This document shows positions 1-23,279 of a stretch of DNA of 64,000 bases, piece by piece (positions within the stretch are counted from its first letter, which is position 1; each line of letters opens with the position of its first letter). Position numbers and translations under genes: made by a program. Under the pieces are notes generated by a model. It was not told where the DNA came from. It ran no database searches and worked only from the letters and a program-made list of their open reading frames with translations. The DNA is from Thermoleophilia bacterium (lineage in GTDB: Bacteria; Actinomycetota; Thermoleophilia; Miltoncostaeales; Miltoncostaeaceae), in the NCBI GenBank assembly GCA_028285405.1, contig JANQPH010000049.1:48671-112670 (forward strand), read 5' to 3'.

Positions 1-412
1 GTTTCCGGCGGTCCGGCTCTCGGCCAGCGGCTTCGCCGACGACCAGGTCACGATCGTCACCTACGGCCCGGCGGCACCGATCGCCATGGACGCGGCGACC
101 GAGATGCTTCTGGAGGACGAGGTCTTCTCCGAGGTGCTCGTGCTCGGGCGGGTGCACCCGCTCGATCTGGCGCCGATCACCGATTCCCTCGCGCGCACCG
201 GAGCGCTCGTCACCGTCGAGGAGGGGGGCGTGACGGGGGGCTTCGGCGCCGAGATCGCGGCGCAGGTGCAGTCCACGTCGTGGTCCGACCTGCGGCATCC
301 GGTCGTTCGCATCGGCGCCCGGGACGGGATCATCCCGTCGGCGCCCGGCTTGGAGGACGAGGCGCTTCCGAGCGTGGCCGACGTTGTCGGCGCCGTGGAG
401 CGGCTCGTCTAG
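1..412 (+). CDS. 2-oxoacid (pyruvate/acetoin-type) dehydrogenase E1 component beta subunit, C-terminal fragment (5' end lies outside the window)
   Basis: The frame is open from the window edge (codons from nt 2) to TAG at 410-412. The translation ...DQVTIVTYGPAAPIAMDAATEMLLEDEVFSEVLVLGRVHPLDLAPITDSLARTGALVTVEEGGVTGGFGAEIAAQV...RIGARDGIIPSAP matches the transketolase-C domain of E1-beta subunits. Confidence 0.8.
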   Translation, partial: FPAVRLSASGFADDQVTIVTYGPAAPIAMDAATEMLLEDEVFSEVLVLGRVHPLDLAPITDSLARTGALVTVEEGGVTGGFGAEIAAQVQSTSWSDLRHPVVRIGARDGIIPSAPGLEDEALPSVADVVGAVERLV

Positions 413-1554
413 CTCCGTCCGCTCAGCCGGGATGGCTGCCGGTCGCTCGGCGGCCACACGGTTCCCGACGGCACGATCGTCCCGTCGGGGACGTCGTCGT
501 TGACGACGACACCGTTTCCGACGATCGCGCCCGACCCGATCCTGGCGCCGACTCGGGTCGTGACGCCCATCCCGACGAGCGTGCCCTCGCCGACCGTCGT
601 CTCGCCGGCCAGGACGGCGCCGGGCGCGAGGTGCACGTTCGGCCCGATCACGCAGTCGTGCGAGACGACGACGTTGGTGTTGAGGAGCGTGTTGGCGCCG
701 ACGGTGGCGAGCGACCAGACGACCGCCCCGGGCATCACGTGAACACCAGGCTCCAGGACCGCTGACGGCGAGATCACCGCGCTCGGGTCGATGATCGTCG
801 TCGACCCGAGGCCGGCCGACTCGAGGACCTCGAAGACGTCGATGCGGCTCCGCATGCGGCCGATTCCCCCGACCGCGTTGACCCCGTACGGCACGCCGGC
901 GTCGTGGAGCTGCTCGAGGAGACCGCGCCCACCGATGATCGGGACGCCGAGGACGTCGCCCGAGTCGGCCGCGTCGTCGAGCACGCACAGCACCTCGAGC
1001 TCGCCGGCGCGATGGATGACCTCGATCAGCGACCGCGCGAGGCCACCGGCGCCGAAGAGGACGACGCTCCGCTCGCCCGCCCTCGCCGCAACGGATGCCG
1101 GGAGCTCCTCCGTCACGCCGGACTGCGGCGCGAAGGCGGCGATGTCCCGCTCGGTCAGGATCCGATCGGTCGGGAGCGCAGCGAGGTCGACCCCGAGCTC
1201 GTTCGCCTTCGCCTCGGCCTTCTTGGTGAGTCGGGGCGCCGCGCCGCTCGGGGCGGCCGCCGCGGCCGCCTCGTCCTCGGTCGGCGGGCGATCGAGCACC
1301 TCGACGAGCAGGTCGCCGGCCATGATCCGGTCGTCGAGCGCGACCGCGAACGGGCCCAGGTAGCCCGCGACCTCGATCTCGACGTCGACGGTGGACTTGC
1401 TCGTCTCGAGCGTGCAGACGACGTCACCCGGCTCCACATGAGCGCCGACGGCACCCTGGATCTCGATCACCTGGGCCTCGGGCTCGTTGTTGTTGACGAG
1501 CGGGGCCAGCACCCGTGCCAGCACCGTGGCCGGCGTTGTCGACTCCTCGCTCAC
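409..1554 (-). CDS. E2-like fusion protein: lipoyl-attachment domain, peripheral-subunit-binding-like segment and NeuD/PglD-type hexapeptide (LbH) acyltransferase
   Basis: The lipoyl-type hybrid motif is GDVVCTLETSKSTVDVEIEVAGY. An Ala/Pro linker follows, then the PSBD-like segment PRLTKKAEAKANELGVDLAALPTDRILTERDIAAF. Next comes a NeuD-like N-domain (VVLFGAGGLARSLIEVI...VLGVPIIGG) and hexapeptide repeats (IDPSAVISPSAVLEPGVHVMPGAVV...HDCVIGPNVHLAPGAVLAGETTVGEGTLVGMGV). I place the start at GTG 1554 because it forms a GTGA overlap with the upstream stop; the ORF track extends to 1608. Confidence 0.8.
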   Translation of the reverse strand: MSEESTTPATVLARVLAPLVNNNEPEAQVIEIQGAVGAHVEPGDVVCTLETSKSTVDVEIEVAGYLGPFAVALDDRIMAGDLLVEVLDRPPTEDEAAAAAAPSGAAPRLTKKAEAKANELGVDLAALPTDRILTERDIAAFAPQSGVTEELPASVAARAGERSVVLFGAGGLARSLIEVIHRAGELEVLCVLDDAADSGDVLGVPIIGGRGLLEQLHDAGVPYGVNAVGGIGRMRSRIDVFEVLESAGLGSTTIIDPSAVISPSAVLEPGVHVMPGAVVWSLATVGANTLLNTNVVVSHDCVIGPNVHLAPGAVLAGETTVGEGTLVGMGVTTRVGARIGSGAIVGNGVVVNDDVPDGTIVPSGTVWPPSDRQPSRLSGRS

Positions 1555-2594
1555 GCTGGTCCTTCCGCTCGTGGTCGTGCGGCCGCACGCGATCCGACGT
1601 GCCGCCACTCATCCGGGCCCAGCTCGCCAAGCTCGGCGAGGGCGCGATCGACGTGCGCCCCGAACTCCTCCTCGAGCCCGGAGCCGCCGCCCCTCGGGAA
1701 CGTCTCCGGGATCCCGCCCGCGCGCAAGGCCGGCTCGAAGCCGGCGTGTGCGAGCAGCTCCCGGGTGTCTGCGACGACCGCCCGTGGCTCGCGGCACAGC
1801 CGATCGTACGAGACCTCGAGCACCCGCTCCGGACCGAGGCGGCTCGTCGCCTGGGAGATCGCGTGCTCGATCAGCAGCGCTTGTGCGACGACCTGCCAGG
1901 ACGGGGCCGCCCCCTCGAAGTCCCCGCGCGGCCGCAGCGACGCCCATTGGTCGACCGAGCCTCGCAGTGACCGACGCATCCCCAGCAGCGAGAGCGCGGT
2001 CTCGCGCGGCGGGCGGCTGATCCGGACGAACCGGCTCGACGGCATCGCCTCGACGAGGTGCCCGAGGTGCCAGACGAGGATCATCGGCTTGAACACCATC
2101 GGCGCGCCGGCGGCCGCCGCCATGTTGGTCACGACGCGTCGCAGCCGACCCCAGTCGATCTCGTCGGCGTGCTCGGCGCCGCGCTCGGCGAGATCCGGGT
2201 ACCGCAGGGCGTCGTTCCAGAAGTAGCCGAACTCGTGCGGCTCGCTCACGCCGGCCGTGCGGCCGAACGTCGACGAGAAGTCCGACTCGAGCCGATCGAC
2301 GCCGAGCGCCTTGGCGAGGCGCACGCCGTAGACGGGGGCGCGCCAGAACGCCGCGATCAGGTTGTTGACGTAGCCGACGTCGAGCGCCGAGGCGATCACC
2401 TGGTAGAGCAGCGTGGTGCCCGAGCGCGGGACCCCGATCACGTGCAGCGTCGGGTACGTCTCGCCGATCTCCTCGAGCTCGCCGTCGGCGGGATCGGCGA
2501 GCAGGGCGTTCAGGTGCTCGAGGAAGCCCTCTTGCACGGGGTCCTTCGCGAACTTCGGTGCGAGCTCGGGGTCTCGTCTGCGCGTGTACGTCAC
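1551..2594 (-). CDS. PAPS-dependent sulfotransferase family protein
   Basis: It carries a 5'-PSB loop (HVIGVPRSGTTLLYQ) and a 3'-PB-like segment (FVRISRPPRETALSLL). The GTG start at 2594 overlaps the upstream stop (GTGA), and its own stop overlaps the downstream GTG start. Confidence 0.8.
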   Translation of the reverse strand: MTYTRRRDPELAPKFAKDPVQEGFLEHLNALLADPADGELEEIGETYPTLHVIGVPRSGTTLLYQVIASALDVGYVNNLIAAFWRAPVYGVRLAKALGVDRLESDFSSTFGRTAGVSEPHEFGYFWNDALRYPDLAERGAEHADEIDWGRLRRVVTNMAAAAGAPMVFKPMILVWHLGHLVEAMPSSRFVRISRPPRETALSLLGMRRSLRGSVDQWASLRPRGDFEGAAPSWQVVAQALLIEHAISQATSRLGPERVLEVSYDRLCREPRAVVADTRELLAHAGFEPALRAGGIPETFPRGGGSGLEEEFGAHVDRALAELGELGPDEWRHVGSRAAARPRAEGPA

Positions 2595-3091
2595 GATGCG
2601 TCACCGACGAACGCGCCTGTGCCCGGCGCGAGCTTGCTCCAGCGCCAGAAGACCATCGCGTGCCAGCCGAAGGTCTCCCCGACGCCGAAGGTGAGCAGGA
2701 CCGTCAGCACGAACTGCAGGGAGCTGTCGCTGTCGGCGGCGAAGTTGGCGAGGTAGTGCAGGGCGAAGATGACGAGCAGGAGGATGATCCCGACGATGTT
2801 GGGGCGGTACGCGACTCTGCCGTCGGGCTCCGATCCCACGAGGGTGAAGCGCGCGGATCCGCGCAGCGCCCCTGCGCCGAGGCCGATCACGGCACCGAGG
2901 GCCAGCCACCCGATCCGGGCTGGTGAGTCGACCTCGCTCGCCGGGATCGCGATCACGATCGCCAGGGCCGCGATGATCGGGATCGTCCAGAATCGCCGGG
3001 GCGAGCGCCTCCAGACGTGGTGGGGTCGGACGAACAGGAACAGCAGGACGACGATGACGACGGCGCCGGTGATGACGTACTGGAAGTCCAA
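2591..3091 (-). CDS. Integral membrane protein (about 4 TM helices), function unknown
   Basis: Four hydrophobic segments are visible (VITGAVVIVVLLFLFV, IPIIAALAIVIAIPA, IGWLALGAVIGLGAGAL, IVGIILLLVIFALHYL/LTVLLTFGV). The start is TTG at 3091. It is the first gene of a three-gene operon linked by translational coupling. Confidence 0.6.
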   Translation of the reverse strand: MDFQYVITGAVVIVVLLFLFVRPHHVWRRSPRRFWTIPIIAALAIVIAIPASEVDSPARIGWLALGAVIGLGAGALRGSARFTLVGSEPDGRVAYRPNIVGIILLLVIFALHYLANFAADSDSSLQFVLTVLLTFGVGETFGWHAMVFWRWSKLAPGTGAFVGDAS

Positions 3092-3878: not shown

Positions 3879-5828
3879 ATGAGTCGGACCGGATCGTCCT
3901 TCACCACGTCCCGGGGCGGAGACGAGCGACGCAGACGCGTGCGCCGTCGCGCGGTCGGGGCCACGATCGCGGCCCTTGCGGTCGGCGCGCTCGTTCCCGC
4001 GGCCGCGAGCGCGAACTGGACGGAGCCTCAGACCGTCTGCACGAACTGCTCCGAGGGCGACGGGATCGTGAGCTACGCAGAGGCGCCGAACGGCGCCGCG
4101 GTCGCCGCGTGGAACGGAGATCGCAAGGCGCTCGCCGCCTACCGCGGCCCGAACGACGACGAGTTCGGCACGCCGTTCACGGTGGCCACGGGCGGCAAGC
4201 CGAGCTACGTGCGCGCGGCGATCAACTCCACCGGGACCGCCGCGGTCATGTCGAGCGCGGGCACCCAGAGCGTCGTCGCCCGCCGCGGCCCGAGCGACAG
4301 CAGCTGGAGCACGGCGTCCAGCCCGGGCGAGTGGCCCGCGGTCGCACCCGACGGCTCCGTCCTCGTGCTCGGCTGGGTCGCTCCCCTCAACGGGAGCCAG
4401 TCTGCCCAGATCTTCACCTGGCCGGCGAACGGCACCGCCTTCGGTGGCGGTACGACGCTCGGGACCCTCGCGGCGCCGTTCACCTTCCAGGAAGGCATCT
4501 ACCTGTCGAGCAACGGCCAGGGCGACTACGTCGCGACCTGGAACGCGCAGACGGGGACCCAGAGCACGGACCAGGCGTTCGCCTCGTACTCCTCGGACGG
4601 GACGACCTGGACCGCGCCCGAGGCGGTCGGCACCGGCTCAGCGGTCGAGACGACGGCCGTCGATCCGATGGGCAACGCCCTGGCGTTCTACGGCAACCCG
4701 GGGACGCCCGTGTATCGCTGGTACACGAACACGAGCTGGGGGAGCCCCGAGAGCATCCCGTTCGGCTCGTACCCGGCCCGAAACGGTGAGCTCGCTCCGT
4801 TGCCGTCGGCAGGGTTCGACCTCGTCGGCAACGCCGCAGCGCTGGGGCAGACGCCGAACGGTGCCGGGTGGGGCTACGCCGTCCGCCGCTACACGGACGG
4901 CACATGGACGACCAAGACGCTGCCCTCCTCCGGCACCTGGAAGCTCGGCGTCGGTCAGTCCGGCGACACGATCCTCGTTCGCTCGAACGGATCGAGCCTG
5001 ACCTCGCAGTGGGGCTCCTCGATCAACCCCAACGGCTTCAAGAACCAGGACGATCTGCCCGGCAGCGGCGTGCGCTCGCTGATCGGGGTCGGCCTCGACA
5101 TGAACAGCAACGCGACGGCTGTCTACTCCACGGCGCCCTCGGGCAGCCGTCTGGGGAGCGTGTTCGCGACGACCCGTCGTCCGGGCGCGGGCGGTGAGAT
5201 CCAGCTGACCGCCGGGCAGCTCGAGACCAACCAGAAGATCTCCCAGGCGGCGGTGTTGCGCTCGAACGGGGCGCTGTCGGCGCTCGAGGGCGGTCTCCCG
5301 GCGTCGGCATTCCGGGGAGCGGCCTTCGGGGCGCCGGCCTTCGGGTCGAGCGTTCCGATCACGGGGACCGCGGGGCCGTCGACACCGTCGAACGCGCCCG
5401 GCTACCAGGTTCCGGTTCCGTCGAAGACCGGCGGCGGGGGAACCGTGACGCTGTCGGCGGCCCAGCTCGAGACGAACCAGAAGATCTCCCAGGCGGCGGT
5501 GTTGCGCTCGAATGCGGTGCGGGATCGGCTCGCGGCCGGCCTCACGGCCGCGCAGATCGGCGCCGGGGCGATCTCGAGCGCGAGCCTGCTCCCGGGTCTC
5601 GGCTTCGGGGCCCTCGGGGCCGGGAGTCCGGGGACGCCGATCACCGTCCCGACCGGCGGCGGATCGGGCGGAACCGTGACGCTGTCGCAGCAGCAGCTCG
5701 AGACCAACCAGGCGATCTCTCAGGCCGCGGTGCGCCGGTCCAATCTGAACATCGCCCTCCTGGAGGCGGGGCTGACCCAGGACGGGATCGCGGCCGGGGG
5801 GATCTCGAGCCAGAACGTCAGTCCGTAG
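3879..5828 (+). CDS. Secreted protein with a propeller-like N-terminal region (one BNR/Asp-box) and three C-terminal helical repeats
   Basis: The signal peptide is RRAVGATIAALAVGALVPAAASA-NW, with RBS acggag upstream of ATG 3879. One Asp-box is present (SYSSDGTTWTAP). Three modules contain TVTLSxxQLETNQxISQAAVxRSN. Confidence 0.75.
   Translation: MSRTGSSFTTSRGGDERRRRVRRRAVGATIAALAVGALVPAAASANWTEPQTVCTNCSEGDGIVSYAEAPNGAAVAAWNGDRKALAAYRGPNDDEFGTPFTVATGGKPSYVRAAINSTGTAAVMSSAGTQSVVARRGPSDSSWSTASSPGEWPAVAPDGSVLVLGWVAPLNGSQSAQIFTWPANGTAFGGGTTLGTLAAPFTFQEGIYLSSNGQGDYVATWNAQTGTQSTDQAFASYSSDGTTWTAPEAVGTGSAVETTAVDPMGNALAFYGNPGTPVYRWYTNTSWGSPESIPFGSYPARNGELAPLPSAGFDLVGNAAALGQTPNGAGWGYAVRRYTDGTWTTKTLPSSGTWKLGVGQSGDTILVRSNGSSLTSQWGSSINPNGFKNQDDLPGSGVRSLIGVGLDMNSNATAVYSTAPSGSRLGSVFATTRRPGAGGEIQLTAGQLETNQKISQAAVLRSNGALSALEGGLPASAFRGAAFGAPAFGSSVPITGTAGPSTPSNAPGYQVPVPSKTGGGGTVTLSAAQLETNQKISQAAVLRSNAVRDRLAAGLTAAQIGAGAISSASLLPGLGFGALGAGSPGTPITVPTGGGSGGTVTLSQQQLETNQAISQAAVRRSNLNIALLEAGLTQDGIAAGGISSQNVSP
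5193..5750 (+). repeat. Three intragenic repeat modules (about 230-250 nt apart) with near-identical ~50-nt cores
   Basis: The cores cagctcgagaccaaccagaagatctcccaggcggcggtgttgcgctcgaa (about 5216-5266) and cagctcgagacgaaccagaagatctcccaggcggcggtgttgcgctcgaa (about 5463-5513) differ at one position. A third, more diverged copy lies at about 5693-5745. Confidence 0.85.
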
Positions 5829-6822: not shown

Positions 6823-7407
6823 ATGGGCTTCGTCCACCGAAAAGGCGTGCGCCTTGGAGTTGCCGCGATGGCGTCGCTCGTCGCCGTCAGCGCGCTCGTC
6901 TACCAGACGTCGACCGCGGCGTTCAGCGACACCACCGACAACGCCGGCAACAGCTGGGCCGCCGGGTCGGTGACGCTGACCGACAACGACGGTGGATCGG
7001 CGATGTTCACCTCGGCCAACATGGTTCCGGGTGATGTCGTCGAGAACTGCATCACAGTCGACTACACCGGGAGCACCTTCGATCTCGCGGCCGTGAAGCT
7101 CTACGGATCCGTCACCGACGGCGGGCTCGGGGGTGATCTGGATGTCGTCGTCGACGAGGGCACCGGCGGCGGCTTCGGAAACTGCACGGGCTTCACGGTG
7201 GGCCAGACGGTCTTCGCCAGCAACACCCTCAACGCGTTCGCCACCGCGCACAGCTCGTACGCCAACGGCGCGACCGGCTACACGCCGGCGGGCGGCTCGA
7301 CGTCCCGCACCTATCGGTTCCGGGTCACGCTCGGCTCGGACACGCCGAACTCTTCCCAGGGGACCAACGCCACGGCGACGTTCACCTGGGAGGTCCAGAG
7401 CGCCTAG
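6823..7407 (+). CDS. TasA/camelysin-like exported protein with a SipW-cognate-type signal peptide
   Basis: The N-terminus KGVRLGVAAMASLVAVSALVYQTSTAAFSDTTDNAGNSWAAGSVTL fits the T-x-A-x-F-S-D-T...N-x-x-x-A-G pattern of SipW-dependent substrates. The rest is a beta-rich mature domain of about 160 aa. A SipW-like peptidase gene lies directly downstream. Confidence 0.8.
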   Translation: MGFVHRKGVRLGVAAMASLVAVSALVYQTSTAAFSDTTDNAGNSWAAGSVTLTDNDGGSAMFTSANMVPGDVVENCITVDYTGSTFDLAAVKLYGSVTDGGLGGDLDVVVDEGTGGGFGNCTGFTVGQTVFASNTLNAFATAHSSYANGATGYTPAGGSTSRTYRFRVTLGSDTPNSSQGTNATATFTWEVQSA

Positions 7408-7479
7408 GCGCTCGCAGGAGCTCACCGCGCTCGGCCCGGCCCGCCCGCTCGGCGCGCCGGGCCGTGGCGTCGTCGCGCC

Positions 7480-9513
7480 ATGACCCCGACTCCGGCGCCG
7501 ATACCGCCCGCTCGCCCTCCGCCGCGTCGCAGGCTGGCGTGGACCTCGCGCGCGCACCACCTCGCCGAGTTCGCCGCGGTGACCTACTTCCTGGCGCTGC
7601 TCTGGTTGACCGTCTGGACGTTCGCGCCGTCGGTCTTCGGCCTGAGCCCGATCGCGATCTACGGCGGCTCGATGGAGCCGGCGATCGATCGCGGCGACAT
7701 CGTTCTCCTGGACCGCAGTCCGCCCGAGGCGGCCTTCGGGCCGGGCGGCATCGTCACCTACCGCGACCCCGCCATGCCGGACAGGGTGGTGACCCACCGC
7801 ATCGTCGACGTCGCCGACGGCGGTCGCTTCGTCACCAAGGGCGACGCCAACCGGGACCGGGACTCCACCCCCCTCGCTCGGGACGAGGTCATCGGCGCGG
7901 GCCGGATCGTCGTCCCCGCGCTCGGACTCCCTCGAGTCTGGCTGACGAGCGGGGACTGGCTTCGCCTGGGCGTGTGGGGCGCCGTGACGGCCGGGGCGCT
8001 CCTGATGGTGCTGTTCCCCGCGCGCACCCGCCGTCGTGCCGGGTTGGTCGAGAACGACACGCCGCGTCCCAGGCGGGCCGGCGTGCCCAAGCCGGCAACG
8101 GTCGGCGTGTTCGCCGGCCTCGGCGTCGCGGCCGCCGCCATCGCGATCATCGGCGTGAGCGCGGCGTTCTTCAGCGGCACGACGGCCACCGCCACGTCGT
8201 TCGAGGCATCCAAGAGCCTCTACAACCCGTACCGCGACGAGGCCCTCGCCGACCTGCCGGTGGCCTACTGGCGGCTCGGAGAGCAACCACCCGCCGGCGG
8301 GTCGGTCAACTTCTTCGACGACTTCGAGACCTTCTCGGGCTGGACCAACTATCTCGCCGGCACGTTTGCCGGGTCGAGCGATGTCGCCCGGAGTGGGAGC
8401 CAGAGCGGCATCAAGACGTCCAACAACGACCCCAACGGTGGCTGGAAGAGCATCGGGGGGACCGTCGGCAACGACTGGACGCTCGAGCTCTGGACCTATC
8501 GGCCCACCGGCTGGGTGGGCGGGAACCAGACCCGGGTCGGTGTCGAGAGCGGCGCCTTCAGCGGGTACTCGTTCGGCATCGACCACAACTCCAACAGCAT
8601 CTTCATCGACCGCCGACTCGCCGGCGCGGCGACCCGCATCACCACGGCCGTGCCGATGAACCCGCCCGAGGACGCGTGGTACCGCGTGACGCTCGTGCGC
8701 AACGGGAGCTCGATCGTCGCGACGGCCTACGACTCGTTGGGCACCCAGCTCGGCCAGGCGAGCGCGACCGACGCCACGTTCGCCAGCTACGACCGGGTCG
8801 TCGTCCACGGTGGCCACCAGTTCTACGTCGACGATCTCAGCGTCGTCGGGACGGGCGGCGGTGGTGGTGCCTACCCGCCGGCGGCGGACGAGCTGCTCAC
8901 CCATTCCGGGACCTATCAGGGCTCGCCCACCCTCGGGGTGCCGGGGCTCCTCGTCGGCGATCCGAACACCGCCGTCGACCTCGATGGCGCCAATGACTGG
9001 GTCAGCATCCCGGACTCGAGCGACATCAACACCTCGACTCAGGCCCAGCGATCCGTCGAGCTCTGGTTCTCGGCCGATTCGCTGAGCGGTCGCCAGGTGC
9101 TCTGGGAGGAGGGCGGCGGCACGAACGGCCTCGCGATCTACCTGGACGGCGCGACGCTCTACGGGCGCGCCTGGTCGAAGGGCAACAACTGGAGCAATCC
9201 CCTCCAGATCACCGCGCCCGTCACCACCGGGACGCGGTTCCACGTTGTCGTGGCTCTCGACGCAACCGGCAACCTGATGACGATGTACGTCGACGGGACT
9301 GCCGTCGGGACCGCCACCAAGACGGACGGCCTCGTCCTGGCCTCCCACGGCGGCGACATCGGCATCGGGGCGCTCAACGGAGGCACCGAGTTCCACGACG
9401 GCGTCGCGTCGGGCAGCGGGCGCCAGTTCGACGGCGTCGTCGACGAGGTGGCGGTCTACAACTCCGTCCTGAGCGCCGCGCGCGTCGAGACCCACTGGGC
9501 CGCCGCCAGCTAG
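7480..9513 (+). CDS. SipW-type (S26B, ER/archaeal-type) signal peptidase I fused to a second signal-like segment and two LamG/concanavalin-like domains
   Basis: Peptidase motifs are YGGSMEPAIDRGDIV, VTHRIV and TKGDANRDRD, flanked by TM helices. At aa ~205-242, VGVFAGLGVAAAAIAIIGVSAAFFSGTTATATSFEA mimics the TasA-like signal. Two LamG-like domains follow (AYWRLGE...; DLDGANDWVSIPD...VELWF...HVVVALD...MYVDG...FDGVVDEVAVYN). No stop codon occurs anywhere in the 677 codons. Confidence 0.85.
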   Translation: MTPTPAPIPPARPPPRRRLAWTSRAHHLAEFAAVTYFLALLWLTVWTFAPSVFGLSPIAIYGGSMEPAIDRGDIVLLDRSPPEAAFGPGGIVTYRDPAMPDRVVTHRIVDVADGGRFVTKGDANRDRDSTPLARDEVIGAGRIVVPALGLPRVWLTSGDWLRLGVWGAVTAGALLMVLFPARTRRRAGLVENDTPRPRRAGVPKPATVGVFAGLGVAAAAIAIIGVSAAFFSGTTATATSFEASKSLYNPYRDEALADLPVAYWRLGEQPPAGGSVNFFDDFETFSGWTNYLAGTFAGSSDVARSGSQSGIKTSNNDPNGGWKSIGGTVGNDWTLELWTYRPTGWVGGNQTRVGVESGAFSGYSFGIDHNSNSIFIDRRLAGAATRITTAVPMNPPEDAWYRVTLVRNGSSIVATAYDSLGTQLGQASATDATFASYDRVVVHGGHQFYVDDLSVVGTGGGGGAYPPAADELLTHSGTYQGSPTLGVPGLLVGDPNTAVDLDGANDWVSIPDSSDINTSTQAQRSVELWFSADSLSGRQVLWEEGGGTNGLAIYLDGATLYGRAWSKGNNWSNPLQITAPVTTGTRFHVVVALDATGNLMTMYVDGTAVGTATKTDGLVLASHGGDIGIGALNGGTEFHDGVASGSGRQFDGVVDEVAVYNSVLSAARVETHWAAAS

Positions 9514-14037: not shown

Positions 14038-15099
14038 TCAGGCGAGGAGGGGGCGTGCCGCCGCGTCGGCGACCCGATCGGCCTCGAAGCTCGACCGCAC
14101 GAGTGGTCCGGCCTCGACGTGGCCGAGCCCGAGCCGCTCACCGTCGGCCGCAAGCGCGGGGTACTCGGCCGGCGCGTAGTAGCGGGTGACGGGGAGGTGG
14201 GCCGGCGAGGGGCGCAGGTACTGCCCAACCGTCACGAGCTCGCAGCCGACCCCCGCGAGATCGCTGAAGACCTCGCGGATCTCCCCCAGCTCCTCGCCGA
14301 GCCCGACCATGATGCCGCTCTTGGTCGGAAGGCCGCTCGACGCCGAGCGGGCCAGCAGCTCGAGCGTCCGCTCGTAGCGGGCTCCCGGGCGAACGAGCTG
14401 GTAGAGCCGCGGCACGGTCTCCGTGTTGTGGTTCAGCACGTCGGGGCGGGCATCGAGGATGGCGTCGAGCGCGTCCCAGGATCCGCGAAGGTCCGGGATC
14501 AGGACCTCGACCCGGCACTCGGGAAGCCGCTCGCGGATCGCCCGGATGGTCGCCGCGAAGTGGGCGGCCCCGCCGTCAGGCATGTCATCGCGGGCGACCG
14601 CGGTGACGACCACGAACGAGAGCCCCATCTCGGCCGCTGCCTCGGCCACTCGGCGGGGCTCGTCGGGATCGGGCGGACCCACCGGGCGCGCGGTAGCCAC
14701 GTTGCAGAACCTGCAGCCCCGGGTGCAGTTGGCTCCGGCGATCATGAACGTCGCGGTCCCGCGGGCCCAGCACCGGCCGATGTTCGGGCAGGCGGCCTCC
14801 TCGCACACGGTGGTGAGGCTCGAGTCGCGCATCAGCGCCTTGGTCTGGACGAACCCGTCCGACAGGGGGTTCTTGGCGATCACCCAGCGCGGCAGCCGCG
14901 TTCCGGACGTCAGCTGGGCGAGCTCGGACGGGGTCACGTCGACCACGTCGAGCGCGTCGATCGGGCCGTCCCCGACGAGGAGATCGCCGATCAGGACGTC
15001 GGGCACCGCCCCACGAGCTCTCGCGTCGGAGACCTCGGCCACCAGCTCGTCCGTCTGCTCGATGTCAACCGCAAAGGCGCGGGCGTCGCTCACTGCCAC
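14038..15099 (-). CDS. lipA: Lipoyl synthase
   Basis: Both cluster motifs are present: VCEEAACPNIGRCW and ANCTRGCRFCNV (radical SAM CxxxCxxC). The C-terminal segment is SGIMVGLGE...VTVGQYLRPS. The start is uncertain: GTG 15099 gives about 65 aa ahead of the usual RLPRWV (KPEWL-like) segment. Confidence 0.9.
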   Translation of the reverse strand: MAVSDARAFAVDIEQTDELVAEVSDARARGAVPDVLIGDLLVGDGPIDALDVVDVTPSELAQLTSGTRLPRWVIAKNPLSDGFVQTKALMRDSSLTTVCEEAACPNIGRCWARGTATFMIAGANCTRGCRFCNVATARPVGPPDPDEPRRVAEAAAEMGLSFVVVTAVARDDMPDGGAAHFAATIRAIRERLPECRVEVLIPDLRGSWDALDAILDARPDVLNHNTETVPRLYQLVRPGARYERTLELLARSASSGLPTKSGIMVGLGEELGEIREVFSDLAGVGCELVTVGQYLRPSPAHLPVTRYYAPAEYPALAADGERLGLGHVEAGPLVRSSFEADRVADAAARPLLA

Positions 15100-16461: not shown

Positions 16462-16788
16462 ATGGCGGTCGACTACTCACCGAAGGAGGCCCACGCGAAG
16501 TGGGTCGCCGGCGAGGTCGTGATCATCGACGTGCGCGAGCAGCTCGAGCACGACACGACTCGGATCGACGGAGTCCCCCTGATTCCCATGTCGGAGCTGC
16601 TCGAGCGGATCGACGAGCTGCCGACCGACACCGAGCTCGTGATGCTGTGTCGAAGCGGTGGCCGCAGCGCGCGCGTCGCCGATCACCTGAACGCCCAGGG
16701 TGAGCACGGCGAGGTCGCCAACCTCGAGGGCGGGATCATCGGGTGGGCCGCTGAGGGCCTCCCCTACGAGGGCGAGACGCCGAGCTAG
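16462..16788 (+). CDS. Rhodanese-like sulfurtransferase domain protein
   Basis: MAVDYSPKEAHAKWVAGEVVIIDVRE..E is followed by the active-site loop MLCRSGGRSARVA. It is a single rhodanese domain of about 108 aa. Confidence 0.85.
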   Translation: MAVDYSPKEAHAKWVAGEVVIIDVREQLEHDTTRIDGVPLIPMSELLERIDELPTDTELVMLCRSGGRSARVADHLNAQGEHGEVANLEGGIIGWAAEGLPYEGETPS

Positions 16789-17876
16789 AAGCGCTTGACG
16801 GGGCGGTACAGCGTGTCGCGCTGGACCGCGCGGCGGCCGGTCGCCTCGATCGCGGCGACCATCCGCTCGGTGTCGAGGCGGAATGCGGTGCCGGCGGCGC
16901 GCACCACGTTCTCCTCGATCATGATCGAGCCCATGTCGTCGCAGCCGAAGGCCAGCGCGAGCTGGCCGATGCGAAGGCCCTGAGTGACCCACGACGACTG
17001 GAAGTGCTCGAAGTTGTCGAGGTAGATCCGGCTGACCGCCAGCATCATCAGGTAGTCCGCCGACGTCGTCGGGACGTGGTCGTCACCCCGCGCGCTGCCC
17101 CCACCGGACTGGTAGCTCCAGCAGACGAATGCGCGAAAGCCCCCGGTGTCGTCCTGCACCTCGCGGAGGCGGCGCAGGTGCTCGATCCGGTCCTCCCAGG
17201 TGTCCACGGTGCCGTACATCATCGTGGCCGTGCTGCTCATGCCCTGCTCGTGAGCCGCGCGCATGACGCCGAGCCACTCGTCGCTCGTGGTTTTGCGCGG
17301 TGCGATCTCCTCCCGCACCCGGTCGACCAGGATCTCGGCGCCGCCCCCGGGGATGGAGTCGTGCCCGGCGGCGCGCAGGCGACCGATCGTCTCGTCCAGG
17401 TCGAGCTTCGAGACGTGCGCGATGTGGAGCACCTCGGAGGGCGAGAGCGCGTGCAGGTGGATCGGGTAGCGCGCCTTGATGTCGGAGAAGAGGTCCTCGT
17501 ACCACTCGATCCGCAGCCCCGGGTGGTGCCCGCCCTGCAGGAGCAGCGCGGTGCCGCCCAGCTCGAGGGTCTCCTCGATCTTGCGGAAGATCACCGTCTT
17601 GGGAAGGACATATCCCTCCGGGTCCATCGGCCGCCGGTAGAACGCGCAGAAGTCGCAGTCCGTCACGCAGAAGTTCGTGTAGTTCACGTTCCGATCGATG
17701 ATGAACGTGACCTCGCCGTCGTCGGTCTGGCGCGCCCGCTGTGCCGCGGCCGCCTGGCCCACCCGGATCAGGTCGCGCGAGGCGAGCAGCTCGACGGCCT
17801 CCTCGTCGGTGATGCGCGCTCCTTGGCCCGCGCGCTCGAGGATGTCGTCGACTCGGTTGGGTGCGACCGTCGCCAT
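16785..17876 (-). CDS. mqnC: Radical SAM enzyme of the futalosine pathway, most like cyclic dehypoxanthinyl futalosine synthase
   Basis: VTFIIDRNVNYTNFCVTDCDFCAFYRRP contains the CxxxCxxC motif. Also present are LLLQGGHHPGL, HLHALSPSEV and MMYGTVDTWEDRIEHLRRLREVQDDTGGFRAFVCW. The FCAFYR context favours MqnC over MqnE, but that is my judgement only. Confidence 0.75.
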   Translation of the reverse strand: MATVAPNRVDDILERAGQGARITDEEAVELLASRDLIRVGQAAAAQRARQTDDGEVTFIIDRNVNYTNFCVTDCDFCAFYRRPMDPEGYVLPKTVIFRKIEETLELGGTALLLQGGHHPGLRIEWYEDLFSDIKARYPIHLHALSPSEVLHIAHVSKLDLDETIGRLRAAGHDSIPGGGAEILVDRVREEIAPRKTTSDEWLGVMRAAHEQGMSSTATMMYGTVDTWEDRIEHLRRLREVQDDTGGFRAFVCWSYQSGGGSARGDDHVPTTSADYLMMLAVSRIYLDNFEHFQSSWVTQGLRIGQLALAFGCDDMGSIMIEENVVRAAGTAFRLDTERMVAAIEATGRRAVQRDTLYRPVKRF

Positions 17877-17886
17877 GACGCCGATC

Positions 17887-18687
17887 TTACGCCGCGACCG
17901 GAACGACGTCGTCGAGCAGCCCGATCTGCCGACATTCGTCCAGGAAGCGCACCAGGCCCGCGCGCTCGTCGTGTCCGAAGCCGAAGCGCAGCCGTCCCAG
18001 GTACTCGCGGACGTAGTCCTCTGCGAACGGGTAGCGATCCGCGGCGGCGACCACGACCGGCTCGGGATCGGCGGCGAACCGCTCGTGGGCGTCGGTCAGC
18101 ACCGCGCTGAGCGCCGCCAGATCCTCCGTGCGCGTGGCGGCCGTCTCGGCCCGGGCCGCCCAGACGGCGAAGACCATGGGAAGGTCGGTCCACTCTCGCC
18201 AGCGCTGCGCGAGGTCGGTCGCGTAGGGCGCGACACCGGAGCGGAGTCCGAGCAGGGCGTCGTCGCCGATCAGGAGCACCCCGTCGTACCTGGTGAGCGC
18301 GTCGGGGAGATCGCTGTCGAGCTCGTCGAACGGTGGCAGCTCGGGCCCGAGGAGGATGCGCAGCAGCGCGACGGATGTCGCGCTGTGGGTCGTGACGGCG
18401 ACCGAGCGGACGTCCGAGAACGGGACGCGCGAGAAGAGCTGGATCGAGTCGACGGCACCCGCTGCCGTGATCGACGCAACCGGAAGCAGCGAGAGCGCCT
18501 TGGCGTTTCGGGCCCACTCGATGCTCGAGACCGCCGACACGTCGAGCGCTCCGTCGAGCAGCGCCCGGTTGAGCGCCGCGGGGCGCCCGTCCGTGAACGC
18601 CAGCCGTGGCGTGACCGCCCGCTCGAGCCCGTGGTAGAGCGGGTACATGTTGAGGTCGGCGATTCGGCCGACGCGCAGCGCGGTCAT
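17887..18687 (-). CDS. mqnA: Chorismate dehydratase (futalosine pathway MqnA)
   Basis: MTALRVGRIADLNMYPLYHGL...SSIEWARN...LPMVFAVWAAR is typical of the MqnA periplasmic-binding-like fold family. The ATG at 18687 overlaps the upstream stop (ATGA). Confidence 0.85.
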   Translation of the reverse strand: MTALRVGRIADLNMYPLYHGLERAVTPRLAFTDGRPAALNRALLDGALDVSAVSSIEWARNAKALSLLPVASITAAGAVDSIQLFSRVPFSDVRSVAVTTHSATSVALLRILLGPELPPFDELDSDLPDALTRYDGVLLIGDDALLGLRSGVAPYATDLAQRWREWTDLPMVFAVWAARAETAATRTEDLAALSAVLTDAHERFAADPEPVVVAAADRYPFAEDYVREYLGRLRFGFGHDERAGLVRFLDECRQIGLLDDVVPVAA

Positions 18688-19238
18688 CGCGCCACCGCCT
18701 CGGCGCCAACCGCCCCGGCGAGCAGCGACGGGTCCGCCGGATCGTCGGGCGGGATGAGCCAGTCGGTGGCGCCGAAGGCGACCGCGACCTGGCAGGCGTG
18801 GCGGCCGAGCGTGCGCCAGTCCGGGCGAATCCACGGGACCTCGGGTGCCGCCAGCCGGGCGGCCGTGACGACGGACAGGTCCTCGTACCCCCACGAGGCT
18901 GGGCGTGCGGATCCGCCGCCTTCCGGTCGCAACACGATTGCTTTGAGCAGGCCGGTCTCGGCGGCGAGCGCCCCCAGCGCGATCAGGCGGTCCGCGACGA
19001 CGCCGGGCTCGCGCGCGTCGCCGTAGATCACGAGCGCCTCGCTCGGCCGTCCCTTCGCGTGTGCCTCGGCGTGGGCCGAGATGGCGCCCTCGGTCTCGTG
19101 GTCGATCAGCCAATCGCTCGGCGCTGGAGTGCGCGACCACGTGATCACCCGCGGGCCCGTGCTCGGGACCCGGGCGGCGGCGCTCACGGGGTCGGTTGCC
19201 GCCACGATGGCGGCCAGATCGGATGCGGCGATGCTCAT
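18684..19238 (-). CDS. Hypothetical protein resembling the C-terminal half of MqnC/MqnE-type radical SAM enzymes, with no CxxxCxxC motif
   Basis: ALVIYGDAREPGVVADRLIALGALAAETGLLKAIVLRPEGGGSAR...QVAVAFGATDW aligns by eye with ATMMYGTVDTWEDRIEHLRRLREVQDDTGGFRAFVCW..GGGSAR...QLALAFGCDDM of the mqnC product in this window. ATGA overlaps occur at both ends. Confidence 0.6.
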   Translation of the reverse strand: MSIAASDLAAIVAATDPVSAAARVPSTGPRVITWSRTPAPSDWLIDHETEGAISAHAEAHAKGRPSEALVIYGDAREPGVVADRLIALGALAAETGLLKAIVLRPEGGGSARPASWGYEDLSVVTAARLAAPEVPWIRPDWRTLGRHACQVAVAFGATDWLIPPDDPADPSLLAGAVGAEAVAR

Positions 19239-20401
19239 TGGTAGCGGTCGACCACCGCGTCGGCGACCGCGAGCATGGCCACACCATCGGCGCCGCCGAT
19301 GTCGCCGTCGAGCGAGTCTCGGGCCGCGGCCACGAACTCGAGCGCGCGCGTCCGGGCCAGCTCGAGCCCACGGTGCTGAGCGAGCCGGTCGCACAGCGCC
19401 TCCAGGTCGGATCCCGCGCGAGCGGCCTCGACCTCGCGCGCGAGCCGGGGCTCGATCCCCAGCGCGAGGATCACGGGGAGGGTGACCGTGCCATCGCGAA
19501 GGTCCGCGCCGCGCCGCTTTCCGGTCGTGGCGGGTGCCCCCGCCAGATCGAGGATGTCGTCGAAGATCTGAAATGCCAGGCCGACGTTCTCGCCGAACGC
19601 GGTGAGCCGCTCCGTCGCCTCGGGGCTCGCTCCGGTGACGACGGCGCCGAGCCGGCAGGCCACCGCGAACAGCGCCGCGGTCTTCCGCCGGCACCGCTCG
19701 ATGTACGCATCCTCGCCGAGCGAGAGGTCGAAGGCCGCGCGCTGCTGGTCCATCTCGCCCTGCGACAGGGCGAGGGCCGCCTGCGCGAGTGCGCGGACCG
19801 CCGGGGGCGAGCCCGTCCGCGTGAGCTCGGCGAAGGCGCAGGCGAACAGGAAGTCCCCGGTCTGGATCGCCGCCTCGGCACCGCGCGAGTCGACGATGGT
19901 GGGCAGTCCCCGCCGCATCGTGGCCCCGTCGATCAGGTCGTCGTGAACGAGGGTGGCCATGTGCACCAGCTCGACGGCGGTGGCGGCCGAGACCAGGTGC
20001 TCCTCGTTCGCGTCCGAGCCGGCGCCGGCGCAGAAGACGAGCAGCGGTCGAACGCGCTTGCCGCCCGCGGCCAGCGTCTCGAGCGCGGGCTCGGCCACCT
20101 CGGGAACGCCACCGGCGACGGCCTCGGTGAGGCGTCGCTCGCAGGCGCCCAGCAGGGGCCGGAAGGTGCGAAGGCGGGCCGGTGTGGGGGCGGTCGACGC
20201 TATCGGACTCGTCCCCAGTGCAGCGTCACGATCCCGCCGGCGAGCGGCCTCCAGTGGACGTCGCCGAGACCGGAGTCGTGCATTCGCTCGGCCAGCGTGG
20301 CCGGATCGGGGAACCGTCGCACGGACGCGGGAAGGTAGCTGTAGGCGGCGCCATCCCGCCCGAGCGTCGCGCCGAGCGCGGGGACCAGCCGGTCGAACCA
20401 C
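19235..20401 (-). CDS. Long-chain trans-polyprenyl diphosphate synthase (hepta/octaprenyl type)
   Basis: Both Asp-rich motifs are present (LVHDDLIDGATMRRG and FQIFDDILD), along with GKRVRPLL and KTAALF. The only canonical start in frame is GTG 20401, which overlaps menG by 202 nt. The homology-expected N-terminus lies near 20203 (see findings). Confidence 0.85.
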   Translation of the reverse strand: MVRPAGPRARRDARAGWRRLQLPSRVRATVPRSGHAGRANARLRSRRRPLEAARRRDRDAALGTSPIASTAPTPARLRTFRPLLGACERRLTEAVAGGVPEVAEPALETLAAGGKRVRPLLVFCAGAGSDANEEHLVSAATAVELVHMATLVHDDLIDGATMRRGLPTIVDSRGAEAAIQTGDFLFACAFAELTRTGSPPAVRALAQAALALSQGEMDQQRAAFDLSLGEDAYIERCRRKTAALFAVACRLGAVVTGASPEATERLTAFGENVGLAFQIFDDILDLAGAPATTGKRRGADLRDGTVTLPVILALGIEPRLAREVEAARAGSDLEALCDRLAQHRGLELARTRALEFVAAARDSLDGDIGGADGVAMLAVADAVVDRYQ

Positions 20402-20922
20402 AGCCGGTAGAAGTGCTGAAGCCGCCGCGGAGTGCTGATCTCGAGGACCACCATGCGTCCGCCCGGACGGACGACGCGGGCCATCTCGGCCAGTCCGCGA
20501 TCGAGCGACGCCAGGTTGCGGACGCCGAACGCGACGGTCACGGCATCGAAGGCGTCGTCGGCGTAGGGCAGGTCGGTCGCGTCTCCGACCTCGAAGCGCA
20601 CGTCGTCGCCGCGGGCGCTCGCCTTCTCGCGGGCCCGTTCGAGCATCTCGGGGCTGACGTCGAGTCCGACGACCTGACCTTTCGCCGTCGTCCGCGCCGC
20701 CAGCTCGAGCGCGAGGTCACCCGTACCGGTGCAGACGTCGAGCGCCCGATCACCGGCTGCGAGGTCGGCGAGGGCGGCCGCCTGACGGCGCCAGCTGCGA
20801 TCGAGCCCCATCGTCATCGCGCGGTTCAGCAGGTCGTAGCGCGGCGCGATGCGATCGAACATCGCCCGCACCTGGTCTGGCGGGAGCTCCCCGGACCGTG
20901 CGTCCGCGAGATCGGTGCTCAC
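20200..20922 (-). CDS. menG: Demethylmenaquinone methyltransferase (UbiE/MenG family)
   Basis: MFDRIAPRYDLLNRAMTMGLDRSWRR...ALDVCTGTGDLA...GLDVSPEML...FDAVTVAFGVRN...RPGGRMVVLE is the canonical UbiE/MenG SAM-methyltransferase sequence. The GTG at 20922 overlaps the ubiX stop (GTGA). Confidence 0.9.
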   Translation of the reverse strand: MSTDLADARSGELPPDQVRAMFDRIAPRYDLLNRAMTMGLDRSWRRQAAALADLAAGDRALDVCTGTGDLALELAARTTAKGQVVGLDVSPEMLERAREKASARGDDVRFEVGDATDLPYADDAFDAVTVAFGVRNLASLDRGLAEMARVVRPGGRMVVLEISTPRRLQHFYRLWFDRLVPALGATLGRDGAAYSYLPASVRRFPDPATLAERMHDSGLGDVHWRPLAGGIVTLHWGRVR

Positions 20923-21548
20923 GACGCCAGCCCCGGTTGCTGCTCGCCCCATCGCTCGAGCAGGTCGTGCTCGACCCCGAGATGGTCGAGCGCCTTGCCG
21001 ACGACGAAGTTCACGAGGTCGTCGATGCGGTCCGGCAGGTGGTAGAAGCCCGGCGCCGCCGGAAGGACCACCGCGCCGGCTCGGGTCAGCGTGAGCATGC
21101 TCTCGAGCTGGATCGAGCTCACGGGCGTCTCGCGCGGAACCAGCACCAGCGGCCGGCGCTCCTTCAGCATCACGTCCGCGGCGCGATGGATCAGGTTGCG
21201 TCCGGTTCCGTGTGCGATCGCGCCGAGCGTGCTCCCCGAGCACGGCACGATCAGCGCGCCCTTGGTCCTGGCCGACCCCGATGCGAACGGGCTGGTCATC
21301 TCCTGCAGTCCGAGCAGCCGCACGTCGCCTGCGGGGTCCGCGTGCGCGCGGACGAACTCGTCGACGACGACGCCGGCGTTCGGCGGCTCGTCGGGCCCGT
21401 TTCGCTGAAGCTCGTGGCTGATGACATGCGCGCCGGCGTGCGAGACACAGAGTCCGACCTCGTACCCGGCACGCGTCAGCCCGCGCAGAGCGACCGCCGC
21501 GTACGGAGCCCCGCTCGCGCCCGTCACCCCGAGGAAGACGCGTTCCAT
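20919..21548 (-). CDS. ubiX: Flavin prenyltransferase UbiX
   Basis: MERVFLGVTGASGAPYA...LIVPCSGSTLGAIAHG...RPLVLVPRETP...GAVVLPAAPGFY is a canonical UbiX/Pad1 sequence. Confidence 0.9.
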   Translation of the reverse strand: MERVFLGVTGASGAPYAAVALRGLTRAGYEVGLCVSHAGAHVISHELQRNGPDEPPNAGVVVDEFVRAHADPAGDVRLLGLQEMTSPFASGSARTKGALIVPCSGSTLGAIAHGTGRNLIHRAADVMLKERRPLVLVPRETPVSSIQLESMLTLTRAGAVVLPAAPGFYHLPDRIDDLVNFVVGKALDHLGVEHDLLERWGEQQPGLAS

Positions 21549-23275: not shown

Positions 23276-23279
23276 GGGG

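Follow-up and report, generated by a model that had tools for sequence, protein, structure and literature searches.

The window analysed here is a stretch of 64,000 nucleotides from a Thermoleophilia bacterium of the family Miltoncostaeaceae (contig JANQPH010000049.1, positions 48,671 to 112,670), and our subject is a gene near its beginning, at 409..1554 on the (−) strand, the 381-aa product of which joins a lipoyl-type domain to a left-handed beta-helix (LbH) acyltransferase domain; gene and product are called the fusion gene and the fusion protein below. The region 1-3091 holds four genes, each with the signature in third-codon-position G+C content (GC3) that is typical of real coding sequence. 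Besides the fusion gene these are a gene for a 3'-phosphoadenosine 5'-phosphosulfate (PAPS)-type sulfotransferase of 347 aa at 1551..2594 (−) (Sulfotransfer_3, Pfam E = 2.4e-14), a gene for a DUF1453 multi-pass membrane protein of 166 aa at 2591..3091 (−) (PF07301), and the 3' part of an E1-beta gene at 2..412 (+) (Transketolase_C, E = 4.9e-22), which runs off the window start. As the initial annotation of this DNA stated and as can be read in the sequence, the three (−) genes, the membrane protein gene being the first, are chained by GTGA start/stop overlaps at 2591-2594 and 1551-1554, and the CTAG at 409-412 is common to the stops of the convergent E1-beta gene and the fusion gene. It is noted that a longer open reading frame (ORF) is present at 409..1608 (−). 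Because the alignment of the homologues starts at GTG 1554, the 381-aa product is supported rather than a start at 1608, and the GTGA overlap also backs this start. An identical public contig (L001) extends past the window and provides the full E1-beta (335 aa) and an E1-alpha (307 aa), followed by unrelated genes.

Domains and key residues of the fusion protein

The fusion protein consists, in this order, of a lipoyl domain, an Ala/Pro linker, a segment resembling the peripheral-subunit-binding domain (PSBD), a PglD_N domain and an LbH domain. This is the order that the initial annotation had described, and it stands, except that the PSBD-like segment is confirmed only in part. The Pfam matches are Biotin_lipoyl at residues 26-85 (E = 2.5e-7), PglD_N at 164-243 (PF17836, E = 1e-7) and Hexapep at 283-317 (E = 3.7e-17). 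By contrast with an E2 subunit of the 2-oxoacid dehydrogenases, no CAT-like core (2-oxoacid_dh, PF00198, with its DHRxxDG motif) is matched by Pfam in the 381-aa protein at E<=0.1, which bears out, by a profile hidden Markov model (HMM) check, the claim that this core has been replaced. The models of NCBIfam give weak E2 matches across the first ~120 residues.

The lipoyl-type hybrid-barrel domain (residues ~10-88, 1291..1527 (−)) is found by Pfam, by a family profile and by Foldseek alike. The profile, built from 26 members and run against all PDB sequences, matches over positions 8-118 the lipoyl domains of E2p from E. coli (7.8e-29) as well as those of many other E2 proteins, and the N-terminal domain of the AlphaFold2 model (mean predicted local distance difference test, pLDDT, 90.4) superposes on the human E2 inner lipoyl domain (L2, 1y8n_B) with a target template-modelling score (TMt) of 0.72. 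The attachment lysine pointed out before is the candidate lipoyl-lysine Lys53 in ETSKS (codon 1396-1398 (−), verified by translation). It is invariant in the family alignment, and the pattern E[TS][ST]K is present in 181/206 scanned sequences; twelve of the 25 non-matching sequences were inspected, giving seven ETSKG, one ETSR and four truncated or spurious ORFs. Among the full-length members examined, a single one lacks the Lys. Invariant in the family alignment is also a loop P-L-x-N-x-N-E-P-E ahead of strand 2; in E2 lipoyl domains the corresponding loop adjoins the lipoyl-lysine turn and helps recognition by E1.

Could the N-terminal domain rather be biotinyl, or a cofactor-less barrel-sandwich having a structural or docking role? 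The Pfam Biotin_lipoyl model cannot separate lipoyl from biotinyl domains and its single-sequence E-value is modest, and the weak BCCP-type matches among the NCBIfam models (8.8e-6 and 1.7e-5) would also fit such a domain. However, the family profile is far better matched to lipoyl domains (7.8e-29 and 1e-13) than to biotinyl domains (~3e-8). The context of the lysine, ET[ST]K[SATG], resembles the lipoyl E[TS]DKA, while the biotin MKM or (A/V)MKM motif is seen at the Lys position in none of the scanned family members, with no Met beside the Lys. Moreover, a PSBD-like segment comes next, as in E2, and the partner enzyme is an E1 (see below), the known protein substrate of which is a lipoyl domain. 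We thus regard a biotinyl or cofactor-less domain as highly improbable, and the domain is treated below as a putative lipoyl domain.

The Ala/Pro-rich flexible linker (residues ~89-106, PPTEDEAAAAAAPSGAAP; 1237..1290 (−)) is present as claimed. It has lower pLDDT, 65-84, and its sequence and length differ among the family members. The PSBD-like two-helix segment that follows (residues ~107-143, 1126..1236 (−)) is a weak assignment based on the profile and the model. In its favour, a 40-column family profile of the segment has the T. thermophilus E2 PSBD (2eq8_C) as the best PDB match (E = 0.0018, with a loop 4 residues shorter), AlphaFold2 gives two helices at 111-120 and 135-141, and residues T110, A113, A117, P128, T134 and E135 are invariant in the family alignment. 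However, Pfam E3_binding has no match in this segment of the 381-aa protein, and the canonical arginines that contact E1 and E3, which we take to be placed as in the Geobacillus PSBD, are not conserved.

The C-terminal 220 aa of the fusion protein are made up of the PglD_N Rossmann-like domain (residues ~162-245, 820..1071 (−)), to which PerB and PglB-ATD align starting at their N termini, and of the LbH acyltransferase domain (residues ~246-368, 451..819 (−)). In PglD and PerB, PglD_N is the nucleotide-sugar binding domain. The NCBIfam model NeuD_NnaD (TIGR03570) covers residues 164-361 with 159.0 bits, against a cutoff of 160.8; a homologue, P0049, scores 160.9 bits against the same cutoff. 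Over positions 159-356 the family profile matches in the PDB the perosamine N-acetyltransferase PerB (4e-46) and, more weakly, PglB-ATD of Neisseria, PglD, VioB and WeeI. The C-terminal half of the model superposes on PerB (4ea7 and 4eaa) with TMt 0.87-0.88, a root-mean-square deviation of 1.6 A and 37% identity, and the LbH catalytic domain shares 33-37% identity with PerB and PglB-ATD. The predicted catalytic pair is His299-Asp300 in SHDC (His codon 658-660 (−), verified by translation), which is aligned with His141-Asp142 of PerB, His141 being the residue mutated in 4eaa and 4eab; His299 is aligned also with the His of the PglD IEHEC motif. Both SHDC and the GxGG motif of PglD_N are invariant in the family alignment. 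Thus, by sequence and fold, the catalytic half appears to be a member, or by score a borderline member, of the NeuD/PglD/PerB family with an appended arm.

The family and its dedicated E1 partner

Proteins having this fusion form a large, unnamed, conserved family. A word-indexed search gave 435 relatives, nearly all of 360-375 aa with the identical domain string; those that are named at all bear such names as 'NeuD/PglB/VioB family sugar acetyltransferase', 'EpsM' and 'biotin/lipoyl-containing protein'. When 1.84 billion cluster representatives were scanned exhaustively with HMMER, 254 clusters (50% identity) reached E<=1e-30. Among the best 150, about 120 are end-to-end fusions down to 27% identity, and in the most distant member tested (P0360) the string of lipoyl, PglD_N and Hexapep was confirmed by Pfam. 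In a scan of one genome per species, which gave 467 stretches, the whole fusion was present in all of the best 80; these 80 are metagenome-assembled genomes of Thermoleophilia (Gaiellales and Miltoncostaeaceae), of Chloroflexota (mostly Anaerolineales) and of a few other phyla. The window protein is ~40% identical to the Chloroflexota members. Neither the curated models of NCBIfam and Pfam nor the PDB nor the searchable literature, the coverage of which is incomplete, describes the combination of lipoyl, PglD_N and LbH; within this scope, the earlier remark that no characterised example of the architecture is known continues to stand.

Two kinds of unusual relatives are noted. Five proteins of 420-865 aa (P0245, P0274, P0341, P0378 and P0380) have two to four tandem PglD_N + LbH units and no lipoyl domain; they were considered as further types of arm fusion and rejected as tandem PglD-like repeats, and from their sequences they appear to be multi-headed PglD-like acyltransferases. 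The homologue P0049 (L020:146-1297), a 600-aa Gaiellaceae protein, has the lipoyl-LbH architecture in full and, at its C terminus, a tail of ~230 further residues that match no family; the tail may be a read-through or a further fusion.

The neighbours of the fusion gene were located by tblastn in 84 non-redundant loci. Outside Thermoleophilia, among the loci with at least 3.5 kb of sequence on both sides, E1 alpha/beta genes lie within 10 kb in 36/36 and within 3.5 kb in 35/36, and a same-strand E1-beta gene ends no more than 200 nt upstream in 30 of the 42 loci having enough upstream sequence. In the well-flanked Thermoleophilia loci E1 lies within 3.5 kb in 12/21, and its orientation relative to the fusion gene may be convergent (as in the window), divergent or co-directional. 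These varied arrangements argue for selection on proximity rather than for one inherited operon. In all four distant members that were sampled (27-33% identity), E1 is directly upstream, and in two of them it is a fused E1 alpha-beta of 643-649 aa (L087:3603-5534 and L088:180-2129, both in distant lineages), the stop of which overlaps the start of the lipoyl-LbH gene. The initial annotation had staked its reading beforehand on a linkage of homologues to E1 genes, and E1 is indeed beside nearly all of the non-Thermoleophilia and most of the Thermoleophilia relatives, an adjacency that persists through changes of orientation and through fusion of the E1 subunits. The comparative data strongly support a functional link between the fusion protein and E1.

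Note also that some Chloroflexota operons (L003:8797-9990, L045, L056, L072; L091:6833-8967) carry inserted genes: either a gene for a ~400-aa NHL-repeat protein separates E1 from the lipoyl-LbH gene, or E1-alpha and E1-beta are separated by two M28 peptidase genes.

The E1 itself is, as judged from sequence, a distinct and divergent subfamily and not the housekeeping pyruvate dehydrogenase (PDH). Its scores are below both PDH equivalog cutoffs of NCBIfam (alpha 234 vs 394 bits, beta 208 vs 321 bits). Between phyla, alpha is 51% identical (269 bits) and beta 45% (265 bits), as compared with 144 and 167 bits, respectively, to the best solved E1 in the PDB. Signature motifs common to the phyla are GYGPTHSQSLEK, DPYGGAF and AHSK(G/S)DD, and the E1-alpha subfamily has GT(T/V)HT where canonical E1-alpha reads GF(C/L)HL. 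The GDG...N motif for thiamine diphosphate (ThDP) and Mg is retained, as are two histidines (alpha 'AHS' and beta 'THSQS') equivalent to Geobacillus alpha-H271 and beta-H128. In published work (PMC2663715), these two histidines are implicated in the reductive acetylation of lipoate. With these residues, the E1 looks catalytically competent.

The other components of a canonical complex were sought by regular expressions for the E2-core motif DHRxxDG and for the E3 redox-disulfide motif in every ORF lying up to 7 kb from the fusion gene in the 84 loci. The E2-core motif gave one isolated match only, and the E3 motif gave none.

Sugar-pathway genes, the sulfotransferase and other genes of the window

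The survey of the neighbourhoods for glycan-synthesis genes, which the initial annotation had recommended, found DegT, Bac_transf and NeuB beside the fusion outside Thermoleophilia and none of them adjoining it in Thermoleophilia. In Chloroflexota and allies, a small Bac_transf phosphoglycosyltransferase is typically followed by E1-alpha, E1-beta, the lipoyl-LbH gene and a DegT aminotransferase, in this order. DegT is directly downstream in 23/48 loci and has its top scores to the PseC and LegC models, and Bac_transf is upstream in 19/38. By analogy, this arrangement follows the logic of PglC / PglD / PglE in making bacillosamine, the fusion being at the putative PglD position. L087, a low-GC contig, has NeuB, a NeuC-type epimerase (Epimerase_2), DegT and Wzi beside the fused E1 and the lipoyl-LbH gene; by analogy this would be a nonulosonic-acid or capsule locus having the fusion where LegH or PglD would be. 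An unbiased clustering of the neighbouring ORFs yielded only E1, DegT, Bac_transf, UbiA, a GT4 transferase and local housekeeping synteny. A UbiA prenyltransferase is often downstream in the Chloroflexota operons.

This context bears on the proposal that the LbH domain is a non-homologous replacement of the E2 core which transfers the acyl group from dihydrolipoate to CoA (coenzyme A), so that the module would be an alternative pyruvate or 2-oxoacid dehydrogenase making acyl-CoA. It is established that LbH enzymes bind CoA thioesters and form trimers and that E2 cores are built of trimers, and there is no other E2 beside the E1 pairs, all of which is as the proposal would have it. It would be expected, however, that such an enzyme is found in the context of central metabolism, while the genes found are those of amino-sugar or nonulosonic-acid biosynthesis or a sulfotransferase; PglD_N and the catalytic His-Asp of PerB/PglD are conserved family-wide, and E3, often co-encoded in catabolic complexes, is not co-encoded here. 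We thus judge an acyl-CoA-making dehydrogenase to be very unlikely.

In Thermoleophilia, the constant neighbour is the sulfotransferase. It is immediately upstream of the fusion gene in 30/31 loci of the Thermoleophilia clade and in 0/47 of the others, and the subfamily is found almost only beside the lipoyl-LbH gene in Thermoleophilia; it is thus a true, clade-specific partner. These counts were taken from tblastn because, in the clustering, antisense ORFs of the high-GC DNA made one big junk cluster that absorbed the sulfotransferase. Across 24 aligned clade members the identity is 52-77%, with the GVPRSGTT / PRSGTT loop invariant. A sequence match in the PDB is absent, and the best structural matches by Foldseek of the AlphaFold2 model (pLDDT 89) are the mycobacterial Stf1/Stf9 and TPST2 (template-modelling (TM) score ~0.45), which, as far as the model goes, appear to be generic PAPS-sulfotransferase matches without pointing to a substrate. 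The clade also has GxGG(L/F) in PglD_N (residues 168-174), as against GGGGH in PglB, PerB and the Chloroflexota clade, and this change from His to Leu/Phe goes together with the exchange of the aminotransferase partner for the sulfotransferase. The neighbours in one Thermoleophilia locus (L002) are the cell-envelope genes Amidase_2, BacA and MurT/GatD.

The coupling to neighbours that had been proposed at the outset thus holds for the sulfotransferase and does not extend to the membrane protein. No homologue of the DUF1453 protein adjoins the fusion gene at any other locus, it being seen in the contig of the window only, and we have rejected it as a component of the system. Similarly, lipA (Radical_SAM + LIAS_N) is in the window as was noted, at 14038-15099 (−), and its proximity carries no weight: it is 13 kb from the fusion gene with unrelated genes between, and it stands alone, its neighbours being an amidohydrolase and a dCTP deaminase, with no lipB, E2 or E3 adjoining. 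It was therefore rejected as linked evidence.

Elsewhere in the window, 3879-5828 (+) encodes a 649-aa protein with no Pfam match, which was not selected by the GC3 filter though the ORF is long; its C-terminal part has three ~70-aa repeats containing QLETNQ(K/A)ISQAAV(L/R)RSN, clear in the translation. The stretch 6823-9513 (+) encodes a camelysin/TasA-like protein (Peptidase_M73, marginal, E = 1.8e-4) and then a 677-aa protein, the N terminus of which resembles type-I signal peptidase (GGSMEPAIDRGD) and the C terminus of which matches Laminin_G_3; the two could be a SipW/TasA-like secretion pair. From reading the translations, 16785-25642 has a cluster resembling futalosine-route menaquinone and quinone-related genes, comprising a radical-SAM MqnC/E-like protein, a polyprenyl synthase, UbiX, UbiD and cytochrome bc-type subunits.

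Proposed acyl transfer and comparison with known systems

Based on the above, the 381-aa protein probably carries and transfers the acyl group in a small 2-oxoacid-dehydrogenase-like system that yields an N-acylated amino sugar and not an acyl-CoA, a reading of the sequences in which we place moderate confidence. In the proposed pathway, Lys53 would be lipoylated by the cellular LipB/LipA or LplA machinery. The dedicated ThDP-dependent E1 alpha/beta, as its conserved linkage and retained catalytic residues suggest, would decarboxylate a 2-oxoacid and reductively acylate the lipoyl arm. The Ala/Pro linkers would let the S-acyl-dihydrolipoyl arm reach the thioester site of the LbH domain, presumably in a trimer, where His299 would help a nucleotide-linked 4-amino-4,6-dideoxyhexose, bound in PglD_N, to attack with its amino group, the acyl group passing directly from lipoate to the sugar and CoA not being involved. 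The dihydrolipoyl arm would then be reoxidised by the housekeeping E3, possibly docked at the PSBD-like segment. In the clade of the window, the PAPS sulfotransferase of the overlapped gene would sulfate the same product or glycan, and in Chloroflexota and the low-GC lineage the module would take the place of PglD/LegH in pathways of the bacillosamine or legionaminic-acid type.

As for the acyl group, acetyl is suggested because E1-alpha is closest to the PDH-type alpha subunits, and by similarity the substrate of E1 would be pyruvate-like. A hydroxypyruvate or ketose-phosphate donor, giving glycolyl, is also possible; glycolyl or other groups would be compatible with the polar substitutions near the ThDP site that are specific to the subfamily, and with the size of E1, which is like that of QncN/SclQ2-3.

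The CoA-free transfer to an amino sugar is supported because a nearly invariant Lys on a lipoyl fold is joined to a transferase, because the dedicated E1 has no other plausible protein substrate, because the CAT-like core needed for acyl-CoA is systematically absent and because the module occupies the PglD/LegH slot of amino-sugar pathways. There are also two precedents, LpxA/LpxD and the Qnc/Scl systems. LpxA and LpxD are LbH acyltransferases that accept acyl groups from a protein-tethered thiol arm. The S-acyl-dihydrolipoamide thioester is about isoenergetic with that of acyl-CoA, as follows from the free reversibility of the E2 reaction, and therefore amide formation from it is feasible. 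Moreover, the Qnc/Scl systems have a dedicated E1 and lipoyl-E2 that deliver glycolyl to an acyl carrier protein (ACP) and not to CoA (PMC6335953).

Several findings weigh against this reading. As regards the mechanism, no E3 is encoded within the distance scanned, the match of the PSBD-like segment is weak and its canonical arginines are missing, and E1 is absent within 10 kb at nine of the 21 well-flanked Thermoleophilia loci, with a distant E1 confirmed for one of them. At that locus (L031), the E1 pair is ~250 kb off on the same 591,841-bp contig (contig_30038), with no E2 gene adjoining. In addition, the LbH domain, 33-37% identical to bona fide acetyl-CoA users, in which the CoA contacts are made mostly by the backbone, has its C-terminal region intact. 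It might then be supposed that the protein is an ordinary acetyl-CoA-dependent sugar N-acetyltransferase, in which the lipoyl and PSBD-like parts only tether the enzyme to E1/E2/E3 for a local supply of acetyl-CoA, regulate it, or sense redox state or acetyl. Its likeness to PerB and PglB-ATD with all hallmark residues kept, a CoA site that may be intact in the LbH domain, and the nine loci without a nearby E1 would all be accounted for in this way. If this supposition were true, however, it would be expected that a CAT-like E2 core is available, as it is required for making acetyl-CoA from the acylated arm, while no such core is found with the module in the 84 loci bar the one isolated motif, nor is there one beside the unlinked E1 pair, so that the dedicated E1 would be left without an outlet for its product. 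That a divergent E1 travels with the fusion across phyla, with even a start/stop overlap, is hard to explain unless the arm is its substrate, and a near-invariant Lys in a family reaching down to 27% identity argues for the role of a catalytic cofactor. A transferase that simply uses acetyl-CoA is thus rather unlikely in our view.

It is also observed that the distant E1 pair in the L031 genome (L093:7084-9029) has as neighbours a GT4 glycosyltransferase, a GCS2 carboxylate-amine ligase and a weak Hexapep protein, the sulfotransferase and lipoyl-LbH genes being elsewhere on the contig of the E1 pair.

As regards the acceptor, DegT adjoins the fusion gene in 0/27 and Bac_transf in 0/25 Thermoleophilia loci (tblastn), and no aminotransferase, dehydratase or glycosyltransferase is adjacent in the clade of the window. 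Because the His of GGGGH is replaced by Leu/Phe and no aminotransferase or glycan-assembly gene is nearby, the acceptor in this clade may differ. Here the arm would work as proposed, and in Thermoleophilia the acyl group would go to another amine or hydroxyl than that of a nucleotide 4-amino-sugar, for example to a cell-wall precursor or a small metabolite that is later sulfated, or to a sulfated acceptor that is later acylated. The sulfotransferase as the constant partner and the cell-envelope neighbours in L002 are in line with such an acceptor. On the other hand, this clade keeps PglD_N, the DD motif and the catalytic His-Asp, and the window protein still has ~40% identity to the Chloroflexota members that are in aminosugar operons. 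A different acceptor in Thermoleophilia is compatible with the proposed mechanism and is a real, if the lesser, possibility.

For the lipoate-to-sugar transfer in general, we see about even chances that there is a widespread and so far unrecognised class of enzyme complexes in which E1 alpha/beta and a lipoyl-armed LbH transferase directly couple oxidative 2-oxoacid decarboxylation (or a transketolase-like ketose-phosphate cleavage) to the N-acylation of nucleotide amino sugars, with lipoate instead of CoA carrying the acyl group. The interpretation of the initial annotation, in which an acyl group generated by E1 may pass from the lipoyl arm to a sugar or other nucleophile with CoA bypassed, is partly supported and has been substantially strengthened by comparative genomics, the CoA-free step itself being a prediction.

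To our knowledge, lipoyl swinging arms occur in a handful of systems, which are the 2-oxoacid and acetoin dehydrogenases, glycine cleavage, a sulfur-oxidation carrier and Qnc-type loaders, and in those that transfer acyl groups the transferase is, as far as we know, always the CAT-like E2 core. If the proposal is true, lipoate would gain a new catalytic partner, the LbH sugar acyltransferase, and a new class of acceptor, and there would be a CoA-independent route from central oxoacid metabolism to the decoration of cell-surface glycans. The module would then be a concrete, testable candidate for the installation of N-acyl groups on 4-amino-4,6-dideoxyhexoses and nonulosonic-acid derivatives; if the donor of E1 is not pyruvate, it would be the missing source of unusual N-acyl groups (e.g. 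glycolyl) on sugars of the bacillosamine, legionaminic or pseudaminic type, and the Thermoleophilia module would contribute to the making of a sulfated N-acyl sugar. How such N-acyl groups are encoded genetically is acknowledged to be unknown in at least one studied organism (PMC5378307). The hypothesis is specific and would be surprising to the lipoate and glycobiology fields. With its two or three genes the module is compact, it is abundant in uncultured Chloroflexota and Thermoleophilia, and it is suited to direct reconstitution; the proposal can be tested with two or three recombinant proteins.

Finally, we compare the module with known systems. The fusion protein is like E2 (E. coli and Geobacillus E2p) in having an N-terminal lipoyl domain with the Lys at a hairpin tip, an Ala/Pro linker, a PSBD-like segment and then an acyltransferase domain, and in being encoded with an E1 alpha/beta that keeps the catalytic residues for reductive acylation. 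It is unlike E2 in that PglD_N and LbH are present instead of the CAT-like core, in that the predicted acceptor is an amino sugar and not CoA, and in its poorly matched PSBD, its lack of a co-encoded E3 and its E1 falling below the PDH equivalog cutoffs. The fusion thus appears from its sequence to work like E2 and lacks the core by which an E2 is defined. With PglD, PerB, PglB-ATD, VioB and NeuD (TIGR03570) it has in common the sequence and fold of the C-terminal 220 residues and the aligned catalytic His-Asp, and with PglD/LegH the adjoining genes in Chloroflexota and the low-GC lineage, namely a PseC/LegC-like aminotransferase and a PglC-like transferase or NeuB. By contrast, the known TIGR03570 members use acetyl-CoA and stand alone or, in the case of Neisseria PglB, are fused to a phosphoglycosyltransferase, and we know of no member with a lipoyl arm or an E1 partner.

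LpxA and LpxD are comparable in that an LbH trimer moves a carrier-bound acyl thioester to the hydroxyl or amine of a UDP-sugar, the trimer and the donor being presumed for the fusion protein; unlike in the fusion protein, their arm is the phosphopantetheine of a separate ACP that is loaded by fatty-acid synthesis. The neighbouring sulfotransferase is like Stf1/Stf9 and other PAPS sulfotransferases in its Sulfotransfer_3 fold and conserved 5'-phosphosulfate-binding (PSB) loop (PRSGTT), and unlike Stf1/Stf9 in the low identity of only ~15% and the TM of ~0.45. A further likeness is to QncN/QncL/QncM and SclQ1-4, in which a dedicated E1-like ThDP enzyme loads a lipoyl arm, with a non-CoA acceptor for the glycolyl group, and in which the E1 halves, of 305 and 338 aa, are similar in size to those of the E1 of the fusion, the function of which is predicted from genes (PMC6335953). 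Unlike the fusion protein, Qnc/Scl keep a CAT-like acyltransferase domain, and their acceptor is ACP (PMC6335953). Among the Pfam-annotated neighbours viewed at individual loci there is no ACP, no systematic search for ACP having been made. Taken together, we rate the module, from its sequences, as a putative swinging-arm machine of the 2-oxoacid-dehydrogenase type in which the catalytic core and, with it, the acceptor have been swapped.

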